In this document: one piece after another, positions 3,090 through 17,760 of the stretch
Numbering within the stretch: position 1 is the first letter of the stretch
Layout: each line of letters starts with the position of its first letter
Source: Candidatus Hodarchaeota archaeon
Lineage (GTDB): Archaea; Asgardarchaeota; Heimdallarchaeia; Hodarchaeales; Hodarchaeaceae
DNA: 18,531 nt
Assembly (NCBI GenBank): GCA_016839785.1
Contig: JAEOTQ010000036.1
Location: 1-18,531 of the forward strand
Direction: 5' to 3'
Made by a program: the position numbers and the translations under genes
Notes under the pieces: generated by a model
Database searches by the model: none
The model's input: only the letters and a program-made list of their open reading frames with translations
Told to the model about the DNA's origin: nothing

Positions 3090-3206
3090 CGCCGGGGGAG
3101 AGATTTGAACTCTCGAGCTCAAAGAGCACATGCTTTACGGTCGAAAGGATGATTCCTTCCTACGGTATTTCCAGGCATGCTTCCTGCCGGACTAGAATAC
3201 CCCGGC
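3090..3206 (-). tRNA. tRNA-Ser(GGA) with 34-nt intron at 37/38 (3135..3168)
   Basis: Acceptor GCCGGGG/CCCCGGC, discriminator G, anticodon stem CATGC/GCATG with CT-GGA-A^A loop, long variable arm GCTC-TTT-GAGC, T arm GAGAG-TTCAAAT-CTCTC. Followed by CCT, so CCA is not fully encoded. Confidence 0.95.
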
Positions 3207-3232
3207 TTTTTGTAATATGATTATTTTTGTTG

Positions 3233-3246
3233 TTATAAGATTTTCT
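3233..3246 (-). promoter_or_regulatory. BRE-TATA promoter of tRNA-Ser
   Basis: Minus strand AGAAAA-TC-TTATAA; the TATA lies 27-32 nt upstream of the mature tRNA 5' end. Confidence 0.55.
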
Positions 3247-3435
3247 TCTTCTTGTCGAAGCATTTGAGACTCTTATCTGCTTATTCTCCATTTCTGGAGC
3301 AAGTTAGTTTAAGGATGAGGTTCTCCATCATTATTCTGGAATTTAAAAGATGTTTTTTGATCTTTTTCTCACAAGTTTCACTAATTATATGTTTATAATT
3401 TTACCAGCTCAAGAATTTTAGTGATTATAAACGTA

Positions 3436-3457
3436 AAATTACCTTATTTGGTAATTT
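3436..3457. repeat. Perfect 8-bp inverted repeat AAATTACC-N6-GGTAATTT
   Basis: Read directly. Shares its arms with the palindrome at 1314-1331. Lies in the divergent intergenic region. Confidence 0.6.
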
Positions 3458-3722
3458 GGCATTTTTTGTTTGTCATAATGCACAAGAGCTTATTCATCTT
3501 AATGATCTTGATATGAGTAATTGAATAAATTAAATTTTGATGATATAAATTAAAAATTTCCATTTTCATGGACGAAGGAACGGTATTTATTTCACTTAAG
3601 CCAAATATTGACTTTTTGTCGGCATTGCAAAATTATTTGAAATAAGACTAGACTTATATTAGTGGGTATTAGACCTATTCCTAAACGGATTTATCTGAAC
3701 TTGTGATAAGGAGATTAATTTT

Positions 3723-5399
3723 TTGAGAGAAACATTTGTAAAAACTTCAAGAGGACTACTCACACTTACAGTTATTGGCATTTTCACAATTGTATTAGGT
3801 TTTCTCTACTATTCTGGCGTAGCTTCAGTAGACAGATTGTTTTTAGGCTTGGATTATAAAATCTTATTTGCATTCGGCTTTTACTTAACAATCATGACTG
3901 CTTTACCTTCACTATCGGTGATGGATGCCAGAGGGAAAACAAGTGTAAAGAAGATATATCCTCATTTAATACTCTTATTCAGTATCAGCTTATTAGGTAT
4001 TATTTATTCATTGTTAGTTTATGGTGGTTTTATCACTCCGATTGATACAGAAGTAGGTACATGGTTCGATTTCTTCCTTCTTTCTGGTGTTGTCTTCTGC
4101 GTGAGTTTATTACCATTACTGTTTGGTGTTCGTGATCGTGAACGACTTTGGAATCTCAAATTTCTCTATATAGCTCTTACATTAATAGGATTGATTTTAG
4201 AAACATTATCAATGTTAGTCTATGGCCATTATATTGATGATTTAATTGATTCAATCCCACTAGTCGGAGGAACTTCCTGGGATGTCTTATTCCTAAGTGG
4301 AGGGATATTTTTAATTTTAGGAATATTTCCATTATTAATTTCAGCTAGTCATGGTTTCCGCAATTTTCTCGACAGTACTAGGTTACTCTGGCTAATTACA
4401 GTAGTAATTGGGTTTGTTTTAGTCATTCTTTCGCTTCTTATTAGCATAGAAATTCTTGATTCAAACATCCTTCTAGATACCGAATGGACTGTTATTTATT
4501 CGTTTGGAAGTTTATTAATGCTTTCAACTGCAGCGTTCCTTTCTAGTTCAAGGAAATTTAGTGGTGTCTTAGATAAATTAAAATTCATTTGGGTCCTTAC
4601 ATTACTTATCGGAGTATTGATGGTGATAACTTCATTTTCACTTGTTTTATCATCTTCTTCCGAAGTACAAGACTTACTAAGTTTAGCAAATCAAAACTAT
4701 ACGTTTTTAGGTTATTCGTGGGATATAATGCTTATGTTTGGAGCAGTTTTCTCATTCGTCTCAATAATTTTCATGACTTCAGTTCTTTACTTTGAGACAG
4801 AAGAAGTGAGTGGGGACTTCCAGACATCTGACCTCTCTACCGATTCTTTCCTAGACTTGAAGACTACTCCAACAGAAATGGTTACTTACCTTGAGATATT
4901 AAGCAATAATGAAAGTAATTTGATAAACCAGTTCAAAGAAGCTGTTAGGGATGATAAATTTCGACCTCGTGTTTATGAATCTTTAGTAAAGCACTATGAA
5001 GGACGAATAAAATCATATAAAACTAAAATAGGCAGTCTTCGTAAAGCTAAACCAGGAACTCCTCAAGCTGACAAAGTGGGTGCTTTATTCGATTCTGTAT
5101 TAGGTGAAACACCTACACCGAAACCAATTCCAAAAACTCCCACGGTAGAATCTAAACCTGTAGGTCTTCCAACATCACCTCCTCCACCTCCGTCAACCCC
5201 TCCTGTAGCTCCTCCTATACCGACAGTTAGCATTCCTCCTCCATCTCCAACAATTCCTGAACCAGCAATGCCATCTGGACAAACAGGTGATTCTCCTCTT
5301 GATTTAATTGCGGATGCAAGATCAACAAGCATTGCAGAATTACGTGGAGAAATGCTCAAAGAGCTTCGTCGACTACGAGAAATTTTCAAAGAAGAATAA
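3723..5399 (+). CDS. Uncharacterised polytopic membrane protein (about 10 TM in about 70-aa repeats) with a cytoplasmic helical region, Pro-rich tract and conserved-looking C-terminal helix
   Basis: 558-aa ORF with TTG start preceded by AAGGAG. Hydrophobic aa 12-357, helical aa 385-441, Pro-rich aa 463-517. Confidence 0.85.
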   Translation: MRETFVKTSRGLLTLTVIGIFTIVLGFLYYSGVASVDRLFLGLDYKILFAFGFYLTIMTALPSLSVMDARGKTSVKKIYPHLILLFSISLLGIIYSLLVYGGFITPIDTEVGTWFDFFLLSGVVFCVSLLPLLFGVRDRERLWNLKFLYIALTLIGLILETLSMLVYGHYIDDLIDSIPLVGGTSWDVLFLSGGIFLILGIFPLLISASHGFRNFLDSTRLLWLITVVIGFVLVILSLLISIEILDSNILLDTEWTVIYSFGSLLMLSTAAFLSSSRKFSGVLDKLKFIWVLTLLIGVLMVITSFSLVLSSSSEVQDLLSLANQNYTFLGYSWDIMLMFGAVFSFVSIIFMTSVLYFETEEVSGDFQTSDLSTDSFLDLKTTPTEMVTYLEILSNNESNLINQFKEAVRDDKFRPRVYESLVKHYEGRIKSYKTKIGSLRKAKPGTPQADKVGALFDSVLGETPTPKPIPKTPTVESKPVGLPTSPPPPPSTPPVAPPIPTVSIPPPSPTIPEPAMPSGQTGDSPLDLIADARSTSIAELRGEMLKELRRLREIFKEE

Positions 5400-5415
5400 G
5401 ATTTTGATTATCGGT

Positions 5416-5443
5416 GAGAGGGAAAACTCTCCCCTCCTTTTTT
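5416..5443 (+). terminator. Hairpin GAGAG-GGAAAA-CTCTC followed by CCCTCC and T6; putative terminator
   Basis: Located between the convergent stops at 5399 and 5457. Confidence 0.4.
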
Positions 5444-5456
5444 GAGGATTGTTTGG

Positions 5457-7328
5457 TTATTTCCAGGATATAACCAATTCGTCATCTCTGAACGCCCTCT
5501 GAAATACATCACCGATCTCACTATTGGTTGCTATCTTAATTTTTCCTGATTTGGATGTAGTAGCATTAAAAAATTCAATGGGGGAGGAATCTTCAGATTC
5601 TTTGATGAAAAAGCTTATTTCTCTATTTTTTATTCGTTTAGGAAAGCTAATCGTAATTGTTCGTTTATGAAAAGTTATATTTTGTCGCTTAAGTTGACTA
5701 AATCCTGAATTCTGGAAACTTGAAGGAGATTTGTTTACATCGAGCTTCACATTCAAAATTCGTTCTATCGTCTTTATCGTCGCTCCTTTTTGCCCAATCA
5801 CAAGAGGAATATCTTCTTCTTGGGCATGAATTACGAAGCGATGTCCAAAGTTATCTTTTGGAACAATTTCAACTGATTGGTTTGTATATTGTTCCACCAC
5901 GCCCTTTATCTCGGCTATACGCTCTGGTTTAATTTTTTTTGCTTTGTGATCGGATTCATGCAAAGGAATGACAACAGTTTGTTCCCCAAACGTGTACATT
6001 TCATAAACTACATTTCCAGTTAAGAAATCACGGACTTCAACTACCGGCCGAGCGAGATCACTCTCGAATAATCCTGATGGAACCTTTACAGTCATTTTTA
6101 CTTCTAATATTGTCTGTATTTGCCCAGCCTCAATATACAATATAGTATCAAGTACACTAGGAATGACTCCTAGTTCTAGTTTTCCGATGAATCTTTGAAT
6201 AGCGTCTATGGCTGTACTAGAGTGAATTACTCCAATTAATCCAATTCCAGCCAAGCGAAGGTCTGTATACAAGCGAAAATCATCTTGATCGCGGATCTCA
6301 TCAAAAATAGTGTAATCTGGTCTAGATAACAAAAGAATATCATGAATTTCAGAGCGTGTACCAAAGTTCTTTGAATATTGGGTAATTTCTGCTTTTAGAT
6401 TCAGATCTCTTGGGGATTCAATCGTCTTAATGATTTTCCCCATTTCATAGTAAAATAGTGCTAAGGCACGAGTAAAAGTTGTTTTTCCAGCTCCAGGCCT
6501 ACCTGCGACCAATATCCCTTCGGCCTTTTCTTCAAGACGCTGATTTAAACGTGATGCCAGCCCATATTCTTCTAGTGCCATTCTTTTCAATGGACGGACA
6601 GCAGTAATTTCCCAACCATCAGAAAATGGAGGACGAGTAATTACAATCCTCCTATCTTCATACTGAACGATTGTTGATGTTTTTCTATCAATTTCAATAA
6701 AAGTATCAGGAAAGAAATCAGCTTTTTCTAGGATCTCATCAGCGTAATCAATTATTACTTCTTTTACAATAATTTCGGAGGAAAATTGTAAAAACCTTAC
6801 GGCACCTGGTTTTCCCTTTTTTACAAACACAGTTGTTCCTTGTTTGATATGAATACTCATAGTTTCATTATCAAAGTACCTATCAATTTTCAATTGCTTT
6901 TCATGCTGCCTAAGAGTGTTTGACTTAATGAATAGAGTTTTCACACCCATTGATTGAGCACTTAAATTCTGAATGTTATCAGAAGTGATTAGAGTTCCTC
7001 CTTCTTTCCATGCTAACTCACGAATTAATGCATCAAGTTCCCCTAACTCGAATTGGCGAGGTTTTCTCCCCCCTACTGAAAAAACGATCTCTTTCTGCTC
7101 ACAAGCTGATCTGATAAACTTGAGTTGTTCCAATCCATTTATTCCAGTTTTTTTACCTAAATTTGCTTGGTTTTCTAGTTCTAAAAGAAGTGCAATGGGG
7201 ATGGTGATTGTTGAACCAATTTTGATTTTGTGATTCAAAATTAGTTCCTTGAGTCCTCCATTTATAACCACAGATGTATCAGGAACATAGTGATCCTCCT
7301 CCGATCCAAAGTCAAATCTCCCATCCAT
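5457..7328 (-). CDS. PINA: PIN-domain P-loop ATPase with KH domain (PINc/VapC-family ATPase, Holliday-junction branch migration)
   Basis: PIN motif VPDTSVVING...ELENQANLG, Walker A GRPGAGKT, TIESPRDL, Walker B TIFDEIR, DLARPVVEVRDF, KH motif VIGQKGATIK. Confidence 0.93.
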   Translation of the reverse strand: MDGRFDFGSEEDHYVPDTSVVINGGLKELILNHKIKIGSTITIPIALLLELENQANLGKKTGINGLEQLKFIRSACEQKEIVFSVGGRKPRQFELGELDALIRELAWKEGGTLITSDNIQNLSAQSMGVKTLFIKSNTLRQHEKQLKIDRYFDNETMSIHIKQGTTVFVKKGKPGAVRFLQFSSEIIVKEVIIDYADEILEKADFFPDTFIEIDRKTSTIVQYEDRRIVITRPPFSDGWEITAVRPLKRMALEEYGLASRLNQRLEEKAEGILVAGRPGAGKTTFTRALALFYYEMGKIIKTIESPRDLNLKAEITQYSKNFGTRSEIHDILLLSRPDYTIFDEIRDQDDFRLYTDLRLAGIGLIGVIHSSTAIDAIQRFIGKLELGVIPSVLDTILYIEAGQIQTILEVKMTVKVPSGLFESDLARPVVEVRDFLTGNVVYEMYTFGEQTVVIPLHESDHKAKKIKPERIAEIKGVVEQYTNQSVEIVPKDNFGHRFVIHAQEEDIPLVIGQKGATIKTIERILNVKLDVNKSPSSFQNSGFSQLKRQNITFHKRTITISFPKRIKNREISFFIKESEDSSPIEFFNATTSKSGKIKIATNSEIGDVFQRAFRDDELVISWK

Positions 7329-7975
7329 CAGGCATCACCATTGTCAGAATTGTTTGTAGGAGATATTTCATCTCTGAACTCATATTCTAAATTATTATAT
7401 TCCAGCTCTAGTTGAGAAGCTTGATAATATGTTACATCTCCTAATCTATCTATTACAGATAATAGTAGCTTCTTTCTATCAATTTTTGCTTGTTTTACGA
7501 TTTGATCTAGGAGATCCAGATCAACATCCTCGCCTTCAGGTATTGGATAAATAACCGTTTTACTCACAGATTCTCCAGGTTTTCCTCCTCTTGAGTAAAT
7601 TCTAAAAGGTGCGGTAATCCGAGTCCCAATGCTAACAACATACCCCCGATTACGTAAATCTTTATATACTAAGTACCTACTCCAAAATTTGGGATTAACT
7701 TTTGTGAAATGGGTTACAAGTTCTTTTGATGCAATATCATTCCCAGTATCACTCAAATTTAAAATAATCCTCCCTCTATCTAGGAGTAGTAAAATCTCTT
7801 CAGGTTCTAAACAAAGAGTATTCTCTGATATCCAATGACCAAAATACCCATTTTCGAAAATCTCTGATGCAAGCGGCTTCTCGATTGTTAATTGAGGCGT
7901 TGACAAATCAAATATTATGGATGGGGGTGCTTCATCTTTGGATGATGGTTCTTCTTTCAATTCTCTTAATTCCAT
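7328..7975 (-). CDS. endA: tRNA-intron endonuclease (EndA) family subunit, probably a non-catalytic structural subunit
   Basis: GYFG, LCLEPEE, YLVYKDLRNRGYVV, FRIY, RKKLLL, IDRLGDVTYY. The catalytic Tyr and His positions read Ile120 and Val137. Its stop overlaps the PINA start (TGATG). Confidence 0.88.
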   Translation of the reverse strand: MELRELKEEPSSKDEAPPSIIFDLSTPQLTIEKPLASEIFENGYFGHWISENTLCLEPEEILLLLDRGRIILNLSDTGNDIASKELVTHFTKVNPKFWSRYLVYKDLRNRGYVVSIGTRITAPFRIYSRGGKPGESVSKTVIYPIPEGEDVDLDLLDQIVKQAKIDRKKLLLSVIDRLGDVTYYQASQLELEYNNLEYEFRDEISPTNNSDNGDA

Positions 7976-10545: not shown

Positions 10546-11292
10546 TTGGGAAAAAGAATACTAGTACAAAGACGTGGACGTGGATCACCAGTTTTTCGTG
10601 CATTGTCGCATAGAAGAAGAGGTAAAGCACGTTATTTACCTATCAAGGATAAAGAACTAACAGGAAAAGTTGACTTTACAGTAATTGATTTTATCCATGA
10701 GATGGGTCGAGGTCTTCCTTTGATGCTAATCCGTTATGAAGATGGAGATGAATGTCTTCTTCCAGCCCCGGAAGGGGTTCATGTTGGCCAAAAATGCGAA
10801 CAAGGAGAAGAAGCTGAACTGGAAGTTGGGAATATCGTTCCAGTCCATAAAATCCCAGAGGGAGTTTGGATCTGTAATATAGAAATGCGACCTGGCGATG
10901 GAGGCTCACTTTGTAGAGCGTCAGGGACACATGGTCAAGTTCGTGGTCAATCTAAGTCAGGGCCGTCAATCCAATTACCTTCAAAATACACACGTCAGGT
11001 TCATAAAAACGCACGTGCAATGATTGGGGTTATTTCAGCTGGTGGTAGACCTGATCGCCCATTTTTGAAAGCAGGACTGAAAAGAGCTTTTATGAGGGCA
11101 AAAGGTCATAAGGCGTTTCCTGTAGTACGTGGAGTTGCAATGAATATCGTTTCCCATCCTTTTGGTGGTGGTGCTCATCAGGGACCTGGACAACCTACGA
11201 CTGTTTCGAGAAATGCTCCTCCAGGTAGAAAAGTGGGCTTAATTGCAGCACGTAGGACTGGTCCAAGAAGAGGAAGAATCAGAAGAGAATAA
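10546..11292 (+). CDS. rpl2: 50S ribosomal protein L2 (uL2), TTG start
   Basis: MGKRILVQRRGRG, RGVAMNIVSHPFGGG, NAPPGRKVGLIAARRTG. SD GGTGA lies 5 nt upstream. Confidence 0.98.
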   Translation: MGKRILVQRRGRGSPVFRALSHRRRGKARYLPIKDKELTGKVDFTVIDFIHEMGRGLPLMLIRYEDGDECLLPAPEGVHVGQKCEQGEEAELEVGNIVPVHKIPEGVWICNIEMRPGDGGSLCRASGTHGQVRGQSKSGPSIQLPSKYTRQVHKNARAMIGVISAGGRPDRPFLKAGLKRAFMRAKGHKAFPVVRGVAMNIVSHPFGGGAHQGPGQPTTVSRNAPPGRKVGLIAARRTGPRRGRIRRE

Positions 11293-11299
11293 AGATTTT

Positions 11300-11944
11300 T
11301 TAACCTGAGATTTTCTTCTTGACCTTTTTTAATCGAACAAACGATTCTCTTTCGCGCTCTGCTAGTGTTAAACGAATCCACTTAACTGTTACCTCAATTC
11401 TTGGAATTATTATATAGTTCAGAGCGTTTACCCGTCTTTTAGTTTCAATTATCTCCTTTGATAATCTCGAAATGGTCGATTGGACCTCTGCCAATTGAAC
11501 TATTGCTTGGAGACTTGTTTTAAACAGAAAAAGGTTTTCATCAAATTTGGCAGATGTTCGTTTCATCGAATAAGTCATATCTTTTTGGTCTTCTACCTCA
11601 GAATCTATGAGATTGAACATAGGAACTGATATTCCCATTAAGCTTCGTTTCTTACTCTCTAAGTGGTAAACTTGTTTAAAATTTGAAACAACGGCTTGTA
11701 TTTCTGTTATGCCAAGTTGTAGCTCTAATTTTCTATATTCTTTTTGGGCCAGTCTTGTTTTTTCGAGTGCTTTTTCCTTTCTTTCTTTATAGGCATTTAC
11801 TGACGTAAGAAGTTCTCCAGTTAAAGCCTCAAGCTTTTCACTAAGTAGTTCGTATCCCTTTGTAGCTAGTTCCAATCTCTGATTAAGTTCAAGCAACTGC
11901 ATACGAGTTGGTGTAATTCCTGGAATAATGTCTTCCGTACTCAT
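11300..11944 (-). CDS. atpD: A/V-type ATP synthase subunit D
   Basis: PTRMQLLEL...LATKGYELLSEK, MGISVP, EIIETKRRVNALNYIIIP, LAERERESFVRLK. SD GAGGT at 11951-11955. Confidence 0.95.
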   Translation of the reverse strand: MSTEDIIPGITPTRMQLLELNQRLELATKGYELLSEKLEALTGELLTSVNAYKERKEKALEKTRLAQKEYRKLELQLGITEIQAVVSNFKQVYHLESKKRSLMGISVPMFNLIDSEVEDQKDMTYSMKRTSAKFDENLFLFKTSLQAIVQLAEVQSTISRLSKEIIETKRRVNALNYIIIPRIEVTVKWIRLTLAERERESFVRLKKVKKKISG

Positions 11945-14524: not shown

Positions 14525-15268
14525 TTATCTGAATACTGCGAATCCTCTTTCCAGTCTCCACCACATCCAGTCTAGCCAATCCGCAAACTGATCGATGATT
14601 GGAACATCCATTTTTTCTATGATTAAAGCGAAGAATATCGTACCAAAAAAGCCAATCACTTTGGATGAAACATCATGTGCCCAATAAAAGGCAGTTTCCG
14701 AATCCATTTCGAATTGTGTTACTAAGAAAGATACACACCATAGATGGAAGGTAATTCGTAAAGTGTTTCCAATGAATAATGCGATAAAAAACACGGTACT
14801 TGCTCGTATCTTCGCTGTCCAAGTCGCTTCAGTGATCATAATGATAGCTAAGAGTAATCCTCCCGCTTGCATACCTGTACATGCTTTTACAATCCAATAA
14901 TCACCGTTTGTTGATGGAATGTGAATTCCAGGTGTTTGTGTGGTTGCCTCAAGGAATGGAAATTCACCTCCTCGTAAAAAATCTGGGATAACTGAATTTG
15001 GATCTAATGTAGGGATAGGGAAGTTTTCAATTCCGATAAAAACTAGTATTTCGTGAATTATATTACGAGTTGGTATTTCCAGAAAGACCCAATCGGGAAC
15101 TGTGTATATAAGAAATGTTACAATAGTAGCAATCAGTAGAGATGAAATCATTAATTTATCATTATGATAACGTTTTGGTGTTGTATTTTTTTCTTCAATT
15201 ATTTGATTTCTTTCGCCTTCCAACTGCCCTTCATCAGGGTTTGTAGATAATTCGATATTACCTTTCAT
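14525..15268 (-). CDS. Exosortase/archaeosortase family membrane transpeptidase
   Basis: Multiple TM segments with the Cys-Arg-His triad: IVKAC*TG, GNTLR*I, WAH*D. Confidence 0.85.
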   Translation of the reverse strand: MKGNIELSTNPDEGQLEGERNQIIEEKNTTPKRYHNDKLMISSLLIATIVTFLIYTVPDWVFLEIPTRNIIHEILVFIGIENFPIPTLDPNSVIPDFLRGGEFPFLEATTQTPGIHIPSTNGDYWIVKACTGMQAGGLLLAIIMITEATWTAKIRASTVFFIALFIGNTLRITFHLWCVSFLVTQFEMDSETAFYWAHDVSSKVIGFFGTIFFALIIEKMDVPIIDQFADWLDWMWWRLERGFAVFR

Positions 15269-15500: not shown

Positions 15501-17150
15501 TTAAGTTAAAAAATTGTCAGGATTCTTTAGCGTGTACCATCCATAAGTAACCTTGCAAATATCCTTTTCTACGAGTTCTCTGAGAACTTGTTTGATCTGG
15601 TCTTTTGAAAGTTTAACTTCCGATGTTAAGAGATTTGATTGTGCTTTATACTGAGGCCGCAGCAATAACGCTTGAATGACCTGGATCTCTGAATCCGACA
15701 ACTTAAATCCCTTCGGGATGTTTAAATCAGGCGTTGATTGAATCGAGCTCTCTGAGGCTAGACTTCCTCTTTTTTGCTCCAAGATGTGTTTATCTTTTAA
15801 AATGTACCATCCATAAGATACCCTAAGGATTCCCTTGTCCACTAAATTTCTTAAGACTTCTTTTAAAATGCTTTGTTTCAAACCTGTTGGACGGGTTAAT
15901 AAGTTTGATTGAGCTTTTAGGTTTGGCCTTGACTTAATTGCTTTTATAGTAGCTATTTCTTCCGAAGTCAAACCCTCACCAGTCCGAGAGATTCTTGGAG
16001 ATTTTTTCTTTTTCTTCTTTCGATTTGAATCAGAAAAAGTCTTTTTAAAGAAAGGTAAATGACTCTTCTTTATGATAAACCAGCCGACTTGAGTTCTAAG
16101 AAGTCCCTTAGAAATTAAATTACGTAAATGTTTTTCTGCCTCTTCTATTGCAATATCTAAATCTTTAGCTAAAATTTCAGGTTTTGTTCGATGTTTGATT
16201 CGAGCAAAGGTGCGATCTAGTATTTCCATTTCAATTTCTGTTGGAAGATCTTCTTCCCAGTTGTCTTTTCTGAATAAACCTGTTGTTTGTTTTAAATATG
16301 GGGCGACATCGTTCGAGTACGATTTGTCTGGAGGTTCCATCCTAAAAAGATCAGAATCAGGATCTTTATTATTCTCTGGTACAGATCTTGCATCACTAGA
16401 GGGAGGTTTTTTGAACAAACTTTCCTCATCATAATCATCTGTCGCATTTTCATTCGAGGTACTGCTTCGTGGTATAATTTGCTCCTCACTCAATCGTGTT
16501 TTCACTGAAAGTTCCGAAGAGTTGGGATTTTCACTTGCTTTTTTTGCACTAAAACCTATTTCTGGACTAGGTTTTCCATTAATTGGTTCAGAAGATGGTT
16601 TAGATTTTACTGCAGACATTACTGGAGATATTGTAGGTTTTATCTGTTTAGTTGATAATTTTGAACTACTAGATAATTGTGATGGCCTTTTAAGTTTCGG
16701 TTCTTCCTTTTTTACCGATTCTGAGCCAAAAATCAGGGTTTTTTGTGTCTTTTCGAGCGTGACTTCAGCCACATTGAATAATGACTGGATTTTTTCTGCA
16801 AAAGAATCGAAAGAGGCCCCTATGCCTGCTACTTCGCATGTAATACCTTCGTCTGATTCTGTTTTTAGTAGATATTTCGAGCGTATTTTCTGAACATTTA
16901 ACTTATTCAGACTAAAAAATTCCCGAATTTCACGATTCATGACACTCGATTCATCACCATGAATTTCAAGAACGTACTGTTGTTGTTTTGGTTCAGAACG
17001 TGTTTCTTCAATATAAAATATAATCGAAGGAAAATCTGGAATTCGTGGAGTAGCATGAACACTATTATCAATAAATTCAATTTCACGAAATCTACCACGT
17101 GCCTTTAGAAAGTTCACAAAATCATTTAAAACAGCGTTTTGTCTGAACAT
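15501..17150 (-). CDS. Uncharacterised protein: globular N-terminal domain, S/P/K-rich disordered linker and three tandem winged-helix-like repeats
   Basis: 549-aa ORF; repeats at aa 302-361, 394-452 and 484-542, each ending LRxLxxKG/D...GW(Y/F)xxK. Confidence 0.85.
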   Translation of the reverse strand: MFRQNAVLNDFVNFLKARGRFREIEFIDNSVHATPRIPDFPSIIFYIEETRSEPKQQQYVLEIHGDESSVMNREIREFFSLNKLNVQKIRSKYLLKTESDEGITCEVAGIGASFDSFAEKIQSLFNVAEVTLEKTQKTLIFGSESVKKEEPKLKRPSQLSSSSKLSTKQIKPTISPVMSAVKSKPSSEPINGKPSPEIGFSAKKASENPNSSELSVKTRLSEEQIIPRSSTSNENATDDYDEESLFKKPPSSDARSVPENNKDPDSDLFRMEPPDKSYSNDVAPYLKQTTGLFRKDNWEEDLPTEIEMEILDRTFARIKHRTKPEILAKDLDIAIEEAEKHLRNLISKGLLRTQVGWFIIKKSHLPFFKKTFSDSNRKKKKKKSPRISRTGEGLTSEEIATIKAIKSRPNLKAQSNLLTRPTGLKQSILKEVLRNLVDKGILRVSYGWYILKDKHILEQKRGSLASESSIQSTPDLNIPKGFKLSDSEIQVIQALLLRPQYKAQSNLLTSEVKLSKDQIKQVLRELVEKDICKVTYGWYTLKNPDNFLT

Positions 17151-17319: not shown

Positions 17320-17760
17320 TTACTTCACTTTATTGGATTGTTCATCTTTAAAAAGATGTTTTAAGGAGCTAGGGATGGTAAAAGTTGAATTTTCTAATTC
17401 TTGAAGGTTGATTTGAGTATTATCTCTTGAAATATTCTCCCATAGCCTATTATATTCCATTACAGAAATTCCGAGGGGAGGAGACAGAGAGCTTTTTACG
17501 TTCGTGATTTCATATTCAGCAACGGTCAGAGAGACTGCTTCTTCCTTTACCTCTGTTTTTTTCGAATGGTGGTCCGTGAGCTCTATCAAACCAAATCGTT
17601 GTAATTCTGCAAAGAACGCAATAATTGTTTGAATATCAAAGGATTTCATTTTTTTTGCTATCTGAGGAATTGAGAGATCATTATCAACAAGATGTTTCAT
17701 GATTTCCCTTGTTATTGGTCTTTCTAACAATTTTTCAGCTGTAGAATCAATTTTTGACAT
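17320..17760 (-). CDS. Winged-helix-turn-helix protein (ArsR-like N-terminus), putative transcription regulator
   Basis: PITREIMKHLVDNDLSIPQIAKKM...FAELQRFGLIEL follows the wHTH pattern. Confidence 0.65.
   Translation of the reverse strand: MSKIDSTAEKLLERPITREIMKHLVDNDLSIPQIAKKMKSFDIQTIIAFFAELQRFGLIELTDHHSKKTEVKEEAVSLTVAEYEITNVKSSLSPPLGISVMEYNRLWENISRDNTQINLQELENSTFTIPSSLKHLFKDEQSNKVK

Follow-up and report, generated by a model that had tools for sequence, protein, structure and literature searches.

A ten-helix membrane protein of Hodarchaeales with a near-invariant C-terminal helix: a candidate membrane tether

The analysed stretch of DNA, below called the window, comprises 18,531 nucleotides (nt) of contig JAEOTQ010000036.1 from Candidatus Hodarchaeota archaeon (assembly GCA_016839785.1). 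Among its ribosomal protein and RNA-processing genes lies a single open reading frame with a TTG start that encodes a protein of 558 amino acids (aa) plus stop codon, the subject of this analysis (Table 1). An earlier note, made from the letters alone, had drawn attention to positions 5109-5399, that is the last 96 codons (aa 463-558) and the stop codon, as the end of a membrane protein in which a polyproline tract is followed by an amphipathic helix. The stretches quoted there, SPPPPPSTPPVAPPIP, IPPPSP and GDSPLDLIADARSTSIAELRGEMLKELRRLREIFKEE, are all present exactly in the 558-aa protein. The reported feature is confirmed, and it is stronger than a reading of the sequence alone could tell.

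Table 1. Features of the target gene and its surroundings; positions are those of the window
Feature	Position	Strand	Basis or description
Whole gene	3723..5399	+	558 aa; Hodarchaeales membrane anchor with proposed docking tail; open reading frame, homologues and synteny
Ultra-conserved tail, aa 524-558, SPLDLIADARSTSIAELRGEMLKELRRLREIFKEE	5292..5396	+	proposed docking helix; identity, codons, pN/pS, AlphaFold2
Disordered Pro/Ser/Thr-rich spacer, aa 464-523	5112..5291	+	composition, pLDDT, divergence in length and sequence
Short conserved motif ALFDSVLG (general form [ILVA]F[DE]xxLG), immediately ahead of the Pro tract	5082..5105	+	alignments
Cytoplasmic juxtamembrane helical hairpin, aa 381-445	4863..5057	+	invariant columns and AlphaFold2
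Membrane domain, aa 1-360	3723..4802	+	ten transmembrane helices, five two-helix repeats, N-terminus inside
Conserved upstream motif ACTAGACTTATATTAGT, including a TATA-like box	3647..3663	+	recurrence in aligned upstream regions
GGAG ribosome-binding-like site (3710-3713) and TTG start (3723-3725)	3710..3725	+	sequence, 22 copies
Small hairpin followed by a T-rich run	5416..5441	+	17 nt past the stop; possible transcription end
Antisense open reading frame, 108 aa	5063..5389	-	Gly-rich translation opposite the Pro tract; not a gene
PIN + PilT-like ATPase + KH protein, convergent neighbour	5457-7328	-	NCBIfam PRK13764, 686 bits
tRNA gene	3090-3206	-	Rfam tRNA, 41.5 bits, E 3e-7 (permissive run)

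The conserved tail, the spacer and the membrane domain

Conservation of the tail was measured in an alignment of 29 out of 40 sequences, namely the query and 28 matches; near-identical sequences (P0002, P0003, P0005) and short or truncated ones (P0009, P0024-26, P0036, P0038-40) were left out. All residues from S524 to E557 are invariant except I529, and position 558 is Glu in 28 of the 29 sequences. The mean pairwise identity among the 29 homologues amounts to 0.52 for the membrane domain and 0.62 for the juxtamembrane helices. For the tail it reaches 0.985, with the core (532-556) at 1.000 in 406 of 406 pairs, as against 0.44 for the Pro linker, which varies in both length and sequence; the tail is thus conserved while the linker diverges, the outcome that the earlier note had named as its first check.

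Comparison of 22 DNA copies (the window and 21 further loci) indicates the level at which this constraint operates. The 34 tail residues are invariant save two positions, one with Lys replaced by Ser in two copies and the last one with either Glu or Asp. Every tail codon having synonyms is polymorphic, and Leu and Arg are each written with up to six codons. The ratio of non-synonymous to synonymous differences per site (pN/pS) is 0.046 in the tail versus 0.41-0.63 in the other three regions, a ratio that is only indicative, since pS is saturated at 0.65-0.80; moreover, path-averaging overcounts non-synonymous steps for Arg, Leu and Ser. Because the codons vary freely, selection acts on the protein, and a nucleotide-level element (an RNA or an antisense gene) as the cause of the conservation is ruled out by the synonymous variation. 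Rfam gave no match at the tail region. In these copies purifying selection on the amino acids of the tail helix is close to absolute. The ribosomal proteins of the same loci are 67-100% identical to those of the window and hence no better conserved than the tail. AlphaFold2 gives it as one continuous helix (525-557), unpacked in the monomer, with a predicted local distance difference test score (pLDDT) of 46-70.

The region ahead of the tail has the character of a spacer. A window scan delimited a Pro-rich tract at aa 464-525 with 40% Pro, and the AlphaFold2 pLDDT stays below 50 over aa 443-528, as in disordered sequence. The tract measures 48-147 aa, with about 40% Pro, in 52 full-length relatives. 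Runs of Pro are depleted in these 52 linkers compared with composition-matched shuffles: PPP occurs 155 times instead of 255, and PPPPP 17 times instead of 37. PPPPP is found once in the clade of the window and is absent from most relatives. Selection for profilin-type polyproline is therefore disfavoured; avoidance of long runs is to be expected in an extended spacer, unlike in sites that bind profilin or EVH1. The motifs PPxY, YPxL and (F/W/L/Y)PPPP do not occur in the 52 linkers. P[ST]AP is found 45 times against 11.3 in shuffles (none of 1000 shuffles reaches 45), is the commonest order among tetrapeptides of the same composition (45 versus 5-35 for the other orders) and is present in 22 of 37 non-redundant linkers. 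A late-domain reading of this motif was nevertheless dropped, as the window protein lacks it despite the overall enrichment, and only one of the nine sequences of its clade (P0001-P0009) has it. We infer that the Pro-rich tract acts as a non-collapsing leash and does not offer a series of specific binding sites; its reach at full extension would be roughly 20 nm, an estimate and not a computed value.

The protein is anchored in the cytoplasmic membrane by ten helices, arranged as five two-helix repeats, with both ends inside. Hydropathy peaks lie at residues 11-29, 47-65, 82-100, 118-136, 148-166, 188-206, 224-242, 256-274, 291-309 and 337-355. Lys and Arg number 16 on the N-terminus and even loops versus 1 on the odd loops, so by the positive-inside rule both ends, the tail included, are predicted to be cytoplasmic and the tail not extracellular. 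Comparison of the repeat units with hhalign gave probabilities of 91-97% for R2-R3, R3-R4, R4-R5, R3-R5 and R2-R4, 77% for R1-R2 and R1-R4, and below 10% for R1-R3, R1-R5 and R2-R5. The AlphaFold2 model of the 558-aa protein, built on the 29 homologues, has a mean pLDDT of 71.4 and a predicted template modelling score (pTM) of 0.60; over aa 1-360 the block means range from 61 to 93 and exceed 70 except in two blocks. The cytoplasmic loops of the membrane domain are somewhat better conserved than the outer loops (identity 0.65 versus 0.56).

The Pro tract does not follow directly upon the last transmembrane (TM) helix, as had been described: TM10 ends at about aa 355, and the two are separated by some 100 cytoplasmic residues of helical character. 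In this juxtamembrane region AlphaFold2 places the hairpin helices at 383-409 and 415-441 (pLDDT 63-76), and the 29-sequence alignment contains the invariant block FKEAxRxDKFRPRVxE, in columns F404 to E419. The mean identity of the region is 0.62 in the close family and 0.19 in the wide family. In the short motif ahead of the Pro tract F456 is invariant in 29 of 29 sequences, with Phe kept in nine of ten sequences of the wide alignment; the helix that AlphaFold2 predicts there (447-460) has low confidence.

Paralogues, distant relatives and distribution

The tail recurs on proteins that differ strongly elsewhere. Five loci (L005, L008, L011, L012 and L015) encode a tandem upstream paralogue (in L008, for instance, at 3744-5432) with about 38% identity and nearly the same tail, its end reading SLDLIAD(A/T)RSTSIAELRGEMLKELSRLREIFKE(D/E); a single copy is present in the window and in L001-L004, its closest relatives. 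Between the tandem tails of one genome 13-20 of 32 codons differ synonymously, with one or two residue changes, and gene conversion as the cause of their likeness was rejected on account of these synonymous differences.

An exhaustive search added distant relatives of 554-631 aa (P0050, P0051, P0053, P0055, P0057, P0059 and P0062), of which P0057 carries the name Hodarchaeales. They are built alike, with repeated membrane hairpins followed by a helical region, then by a Pro-rich linker and the tail. The membrane part is only about 0.22 identical and the juxtamembrane region 0.19, yet identity is 0.895 in the tail core, which reads ARSTSIAELRGEMLKELRRLR(D/E)IFKE. The first nine tail residues (SPLDLIAD) are swapped for DVVG(S/T)-like sequence, and the linkers are Gly/Pro-rich and up to 147 aa long.

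The motif also occurs in a soluble protein of 344 aa, P0067, as three tandem tail-like copies from residues 15, 56 and 97, that is with a 41-residue period. The repeat reads (K/R)KTSIAxLRxEMLTE(I/L)xxLRExF; the residue corresponding to K546 is Thr in all three copies and that corresponding to G542 is Glu in two. It is followed by LFDKTLG, which resembles the ALFDSVLG motif of the window protein, and by a helical C-terminal part. P0067 gave no match in Pfam, NCBIfam, PADLOC, PHROGs or the PDB and no similarity to the winged-helix protein of the window. Folded alone it yields a poor model (pLDDT 49.9), in which only the helicity of the repeats is readable.

Conversely, some relatives consist of the membrane domain only (P0049, P0056 and P0060; 370-383 aa), and P0063 ends in an unrelated basic tail. 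A quick maximum-likelihood tree built from the membrane domains nests the tailless relatives inside the tail-bearing clade and places the long-linker types on branches of at least 1.5 substitutions per site; long branches meet in this tree, and several of its "no tail" rows are contig-end fragments.

A motif census counted 70 instances in 68 stored proteins, in 12 distinct versions, 53 of the instances being identical to the 26-mer of the window. The 22 genomic sequences contain 27 occurrences, all at the extreme C-terminus of family members and none elsewhere, and in 27 of 27 the protein ends 0-1 residue beyond ...IFKE. A search for the tail among short proteins returned 12 matches, and the 11 examined (nine together with P0046 and P0066) are cut-off pieces of the family. 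A word search with the profile of the wide alignment was dominated by Pro-rich words and gave three matches. In a scan of genome contigs 212 stretches fit two tail peptide patterns, and 26 of them were confirmed as relatives of the query; the other 186 may include further tail-bearing proteins, since chance would account for about 70 (a rough expectation at uniform base composition). Across the sequences collected, the tail helix behaves as a portable module.

Homologues turned up only in Asgard records of the Hodarchaeales and Heimdall type; the earlier note had named their being common in lineages that lack actin or ESCRT as a refutation, and this was not seen. A word-indexed search yielded 39 homologues with 38-99% identity, and all named ones belong to Hodarchaeales, Hodarchaeota, Heimdallarchaeota B3_Heim or "Promethearchaeota". 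Exhaustive HMMER over 1.84 billion cluster representatives gave 31 with E <= 0.001. A scan of one genome per species found the 21 loci used above, all in Asgard metagenome-assembled genomes: eight are labelled Hodarchaeota or Hodarchaeum, seven Heimdallarchaeota, three Promethearchaeota and one each Hermodarchaeota, Thorarchaeota and "uncultured archaeon". The oddly labelled loci have the same gene order as the others, and their ribosomal proteins are 67-91% identical to those of the window; the odd labels are therefore taken as naming noise.

Gene neighbourhood and flanking signals

Wherever the contig suffices, the genes stand in the order Cbf5 (+), S11-S4-S13 (-), target (+), PINA-type PIN-KH ATPase (-), EndA (-) and then L3-L4-L23-L2 (+). 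The product of the convergent PIN-KH gene also fits the model of the Holliday-junction branch-migration ATPase PINA, with 497 bits, below the cut-off of 800. The upstream neighbour of the target gene is divergent and the downstream one convergent; together with an upstream motif, a GGAG site and a start of its own, this makes the gene look like a separate transcription unit, and its neighbours carry no hint of its function.

The signals ahead of the gene are themselves conserved. A motif of the CACTAGACTT-T(A/T)TAAGT type lies about 60-75 nt ahead of the start in most of 20 aligned upstream regions, and its counterpart in the window, ACTAGACTTATATTAGT, is probably the promoter of the gene, judged by its position and recurrence. 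In an alignment of five genomes (the window and L001-L004) the approximately 110 nt before the start (3612-3722) are almost invariant, compared with proteins that are 79-85% identical; this leader may comprise the promoter plus the binding site of a regulator. An RNA fold search of the leader found nothing that stands out (z = 0.39). TTG is the start chosen by the script in 18 of 22 copies, most with GGAG(A/T)T ahead of it, and the start residue is the same in the aligned homologues. The hairpin downstream of the gene is the sole terminator-like site in 3200-5500; as a terminator it is weak, because shuffled sequence gives 1.1 such sites on average. The antisense open reading frame was rejected as a gene. 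Its Gly-rich translation mirrors the Pro codons, and a second coding constraint there is excluded because synonymous codons of the sense strand vary freely.

Several further features of the window were recorded. The tRNA gene upstream is probably tRNA-Ser(GGA), with CU-GGA in the anticodon loop; it has a long variable arm, its anticodon loop is interrupted by 36 inserted nt that are probably an intron, and it was missed by ARAGORN and by the whole-window Rfam search at the gathering threshold. The gene of the tRNA-splicing endonuclease EndA (7328-7975, -) lies 4 kb from it. Within 10546-11944 the L3-L4-L23-L2 row ends after L2; A/V-type ATPase subunit D is encoded at 11300-11944 on the strand opposite to L2, with no other ATPase subunit nearby in the window. 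The product of 14525-15268 (-) matches the NCBIfam heimdallarchaeosortase (NF045528; 278.5 bits versus a cut-off of 130), which implies sortase-processed surface proteins and is independent evidence that the window belongs to the Heimdall/Hod lineage. The 549-aa product of 15501-17150 (-) has weak matches to winged-helix families at about aa 304-351, 397-445 and 481-536, its first 300 aa matching nothing in Pfam or NCBIfam. The 146-aa product of 17320-17760 (-) likewise gave no match in these two libraries.

Comparison with known systems and proposed role

No family was found for the target protein in Pfam, NCBIfam, PADLOC or PHROGs, nor in Pfam for its parts, its distant relatives or the 29 homologues, in line with its earlier description as an unannotated polytopic protein. 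Pfam gave no match to WH2 (PF02205) in the whole protein, in the 29 homologues or, with E allowed up to 10, in the 37-aa tail; none to VASP_tetra (PF08776); and none, for the protein and the 29 homologues, to Snf7, FH2, EVH1/WH1 or the signature domains of formin, Ena, VASP and WASP. In these searches HMMER filters discard most matches above E of about 0.1, so that very weak likeness is invisible. When the tail was run against the PDB, by sequence and by profile, no WH2, VASP, CHMP or Vps2 chain came up; a profile of seven tail sequences gave no match at E up to 10, and the whole-family profile no significant one. Foldseek of the AlphaFold2 model against the PDB found nothing at E <= 0.001 (best TMq 0.31, a designed helical barrel; transporters at most 0.21). 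The ESM Atlas has no entry for the window protein; for the homologue P0006 it listed no feature matches and structural neighbours with TM scores of at most 0.33 (at most 0.28 in one of the comparisons). The sole library match to the tail, the OAR motif (E 0.018), is below its own cut-off and was taken as chance. A ubiquitin-interacting motif (I-x-x-A-x-x-x-S-x-x-E at 529-539) was dropped, because the strongly conserved part comes after it. In the publications searched, as far as their text was accessible, the string SIAELRGEML occurs in no paper, and those on Asgard WH2, MIM and Pro-rich or transmembrane proteins nowhere describe the family (supplements aside).

The only solved structure with detectable similarity to the tail is dTor_3x33L (PDB 4yy2 and 4yy5), with LELIAEASGTTREEVKEKFLKELRK aligned to LDLIADARSTSIAELRGEMLKELRR at E 6e-6. 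From this alignment the tail would consist of two helices joined by a capping turn, whereas AlphaFold2 gives one continuous helix. As dTor_3x33L is man-made, the likeness is one of helix-forming propensity and not of ancestry.

In MIM/MTSS1 and in WASP, WAVE and Ena/VASP proteins, a membrane-associating module and a Pro-rich region are followed by a conserved helix, short and situated at the C-terminus or close to it. The present family shares this order of modules, and the tandem copies in the soluble P0067 recall tandem-WH2 nucleators. It differs in having no match to WH1/EVH1, I-BAR, WH2 or VASP_tetra, in its integral ten-helix anchor and in its depletion of Pro runs; compared with WH2, its helix is longer, continuous in the model and far more conserved. 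Tethering by a small element is also known from ZipA, which binds the C-terminal peptide of FtsZ, and from Get2/CAML, where a tethered helix captures Get3. The principle proposed here would be analogous: an anchor in the membrane would carry, on a long disordered linker, a docking element that is small and conserved and captures a soluble partner. There is no relation to these proteins in sequence or fold, and the anchor, the orientation (the helix being C-terminal) and the lineage differ. By this analogy, the proteins would form a new lineage-restricted family that works like flexible-tether adaptors, with a docking motif that is unusually constrained and portable.

Our preferred reading, with a probability of about 0.6, is a lineage-specific membrane tether that would present a portable docking helix to a conserved cytoplasmic partner. 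On a helical wheel of the 12 distinct tail versions the varying positions (539, 542, 546, 549 and 556) fall at 100-200 degrees. Unvarying are a hydrophobic stripe (I537, L540, M544, L548, L551 and F555; spacing 3-4-4-3-4) together with L545, and the flanks of the stripe, R541/R552 on one side and E543/E547 on the other. A one-sided footprint with oppositely charged flanks would fit a helix lying in a groove or in a bundle. The membrane domain would serve as an anchor or scaffold and not as a catalytic or transport unit, because no conserved polar residue was seen within the bilayer and no transporter fold was matched. Several points weigh against this reading. The search pattern behind the wheel tally fixed the conserved positions beforehand, so the tally re-describes known sequences and is no independent test. 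The hydrophobic moment of the tail is unremarkable, being reached by 230 of 2000 shuffles, and the AlphaFold2 confidence of the tail is only moderate. Conserved polar TM residues were looked for by eye in the invariant columns and not by a formal test. In addition, even the "free" face appears invariant in the close family, beyond what a helix in a groove would usually need; such invariance of all faces points to possible burial on all sides, to several partners or to self-assembly.

The identity of the partner was considered among actin, ESCRT-related proteins and the tail itself. The family could be a membrane-anchored actin assembly factor, its terminal helix WH2-like, its Pro tract recruiting profilin-actin and P0067 acting like a tandem-WH2 nucleator, an improbable reading on balance. 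The order of modules agrees with that of MIM/MTSS1 and WASP/VASP-type regulators, SIAELRG followed by LKEL (545-548) loosely resembles a WH2 helix with an LKKT-type motif, and P0067 has its three copies with a regular period. Eukaryotic WH2 motifs, however, are poorly conserved, unlike the tail, and the strongest conservation of the tail runs beyond the LKKT-like position, through RRLREIF, which is no WH2 feature. The modelled helix is unbroken through LKEL, where WH2 is extended, and the residues at K546 and G542 are changed in the P0067 repeats; nor did the Pfam and PDB searches find WH2. From the accessible parts of published work, the gelsolins of Asgard archaea have LKDV, LVDV or LRRV at the LKKT-type motif, with an acidic third residue in Loki, and the Heimdall and Thor profilins bind polyproline weakly in vitro, both in favour of an actin partner. 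The depletion of long Pro runs, with one PPPPP in the clade of the window and none in most relatives, argues against profilin recruitment. A recruiter or substrate of the ESCRT (endosomal sorting) machinery, in which a MIM1-like helix is bound by Vps4 or another MIT domain and the Pro tract contacts MIT or UEV domains in the manner of MIM2 or P(S/T)AP motifs, appears rather unlikely too. The layout of MIM1 is present, since the C-terminal helix (525-557) follows disordered sequence (443-528). The MIM1 consensus is (D/E)xxLxxRLxxL(K/R). In the best register, R541-x-x-M544-x-x-E547-L548-x-x-L551-R552, the tail agrees at four of the five positions of LxxRLxxL(K/R); the first acidic position is Arg, and the consensus Arg is replaced by Glu, which the earlier note had seen and which is invariant in all 12 tail versions. 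Three tandem copies as in P0067 are not known to have a precedent in ESCRT. The tails of ESCRT-III do have a similar layout, a flexible Pro-rich stretch leading into a Leu-rich amphipathic helix that ends the chain. In Asgard ESCRT-III, according to the part of PMC7240154 available to us, the subunits carry MIM1-like helices rich in Leu/Ile and MIM2-like motifs rich in Pro. The carrier, unlike ESCRT-III, is a ten-helix polytopic protein with no Snf7 match, and no CHMP or Vps2 chain was found with the tail. The overall enrichment of P[ST]AP favours a UEV contact, as does the presence of UEV-Vps23 and ubiquitin in Hodarchaeia, reported in the accessible text of the literature; the near absence of the motif from the clade of the window argues against it. 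Membership in WH2, VASP_tetra or MIM1, to which the note had likened the tail, is thus not supported, given the profile and PDB searches without a match and the invariant Glu.

Self-association, in which the tails of copies and paralogues would bundle like the VASP tetramerisation helix and cluster the anchors, is doubtful. It would explain the invariance by the need for mutual compatibility of all paralogues, and it agrees with the identical tail on several paralogues, tandem ones included, with the invariance of all helix faces in the main family and with the 3-4-4-3-4 spacing and Arg/Glu flanks, which are typical of helix bundles; that the sole PDB sequence match is a designed helical repeat points the same way. 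On the other hand, about 22 core residues are short for a stable bundle and VASP_tetra was not matched in Pfam; the unpacked helix of the AlphaFold2 monomer is uninformative on oligomers. It is very improbable that the protein is a transporter, channel or sensor with the terminal helix as a ball-and-chain regulator acting within the molecule. Ten helices with internal repeats, the better conserved cytoplasmic loops and the long flexible chain ahead of the helix would suit such a function. The tail, however, remains about 0.9 identical while the membrane domain falls to 0.22, against the co-variation expected of a regulator and its receptor; the motif is also found in a soluble protein, relatives with only the membrane domain exist, and neither Foldseek nor Pfam and NCBIfam gave a match to a fold or family. 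For the preferred tether, there is about an even chance that the partner of the tail lies outside self-association, MIT proteins and actin.

The tether reading follows the order of the parts. The last TM helix leads into the helical hairpin; next comes the disordered spacer, about 60 residues rich in Pro, Ser and Thr, and the chain closes with an amphipathic helix some 33 residues long. This last helix would be the docking motif and would capture one or more soluble, highly conserved cytoplasmic partners, which the Pro-rich leash would hold within reach of the membrane. Of the function first proposed, a membrane tether for cytoskeletal or remodelling machinery, the polytopic anchor, the Pro linker and the terminal helix stand, having passed the note's three refuting conditions that can be computed (tail conservation, side of the membrane and spread of homologues); the assignment to actin or ESCRT is supported by none of the membership comparisons.

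A bolder version, unlikely at present, is a membrane-to-cytoskeleton coupling specific to Hodarchaeales, in which anchors with varied leashes and a three-copy adaptor would plug into actin or ESCRT/Vps4; in the actin case the contact would be WH2-like, of an Asgard-type LK(D/E)x. No mechanism is known to fasten the actin filaments or the ESCRT machinery of these cells to the membrane. In the published work, as far as available to us, actin filaments extend into membrane protrusions in cultured Hodarchaeales strains and the actin regulators of Asgard archaea are mainly profilins and gelsolins, which speaks for an actin partner and leaves that niche open. If the coupling reading were true, archaea would have in these proteins their first known factors for filament assembly or remodelling that are anchored in the membrane. 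The family offers a handle on membrane attachment, namely a cytoplasm-facing peptide, better conserved than the ribosomal proteins encoded nearby, that is reused across paralogues and in a soluble protein. Should the partner be actin or Vps4, eukaryote-like coupling of membrane and cytoskeleton would be dated before eukaryogenesis; should it be something else, the tail would mark a new interaction hub of these cells.

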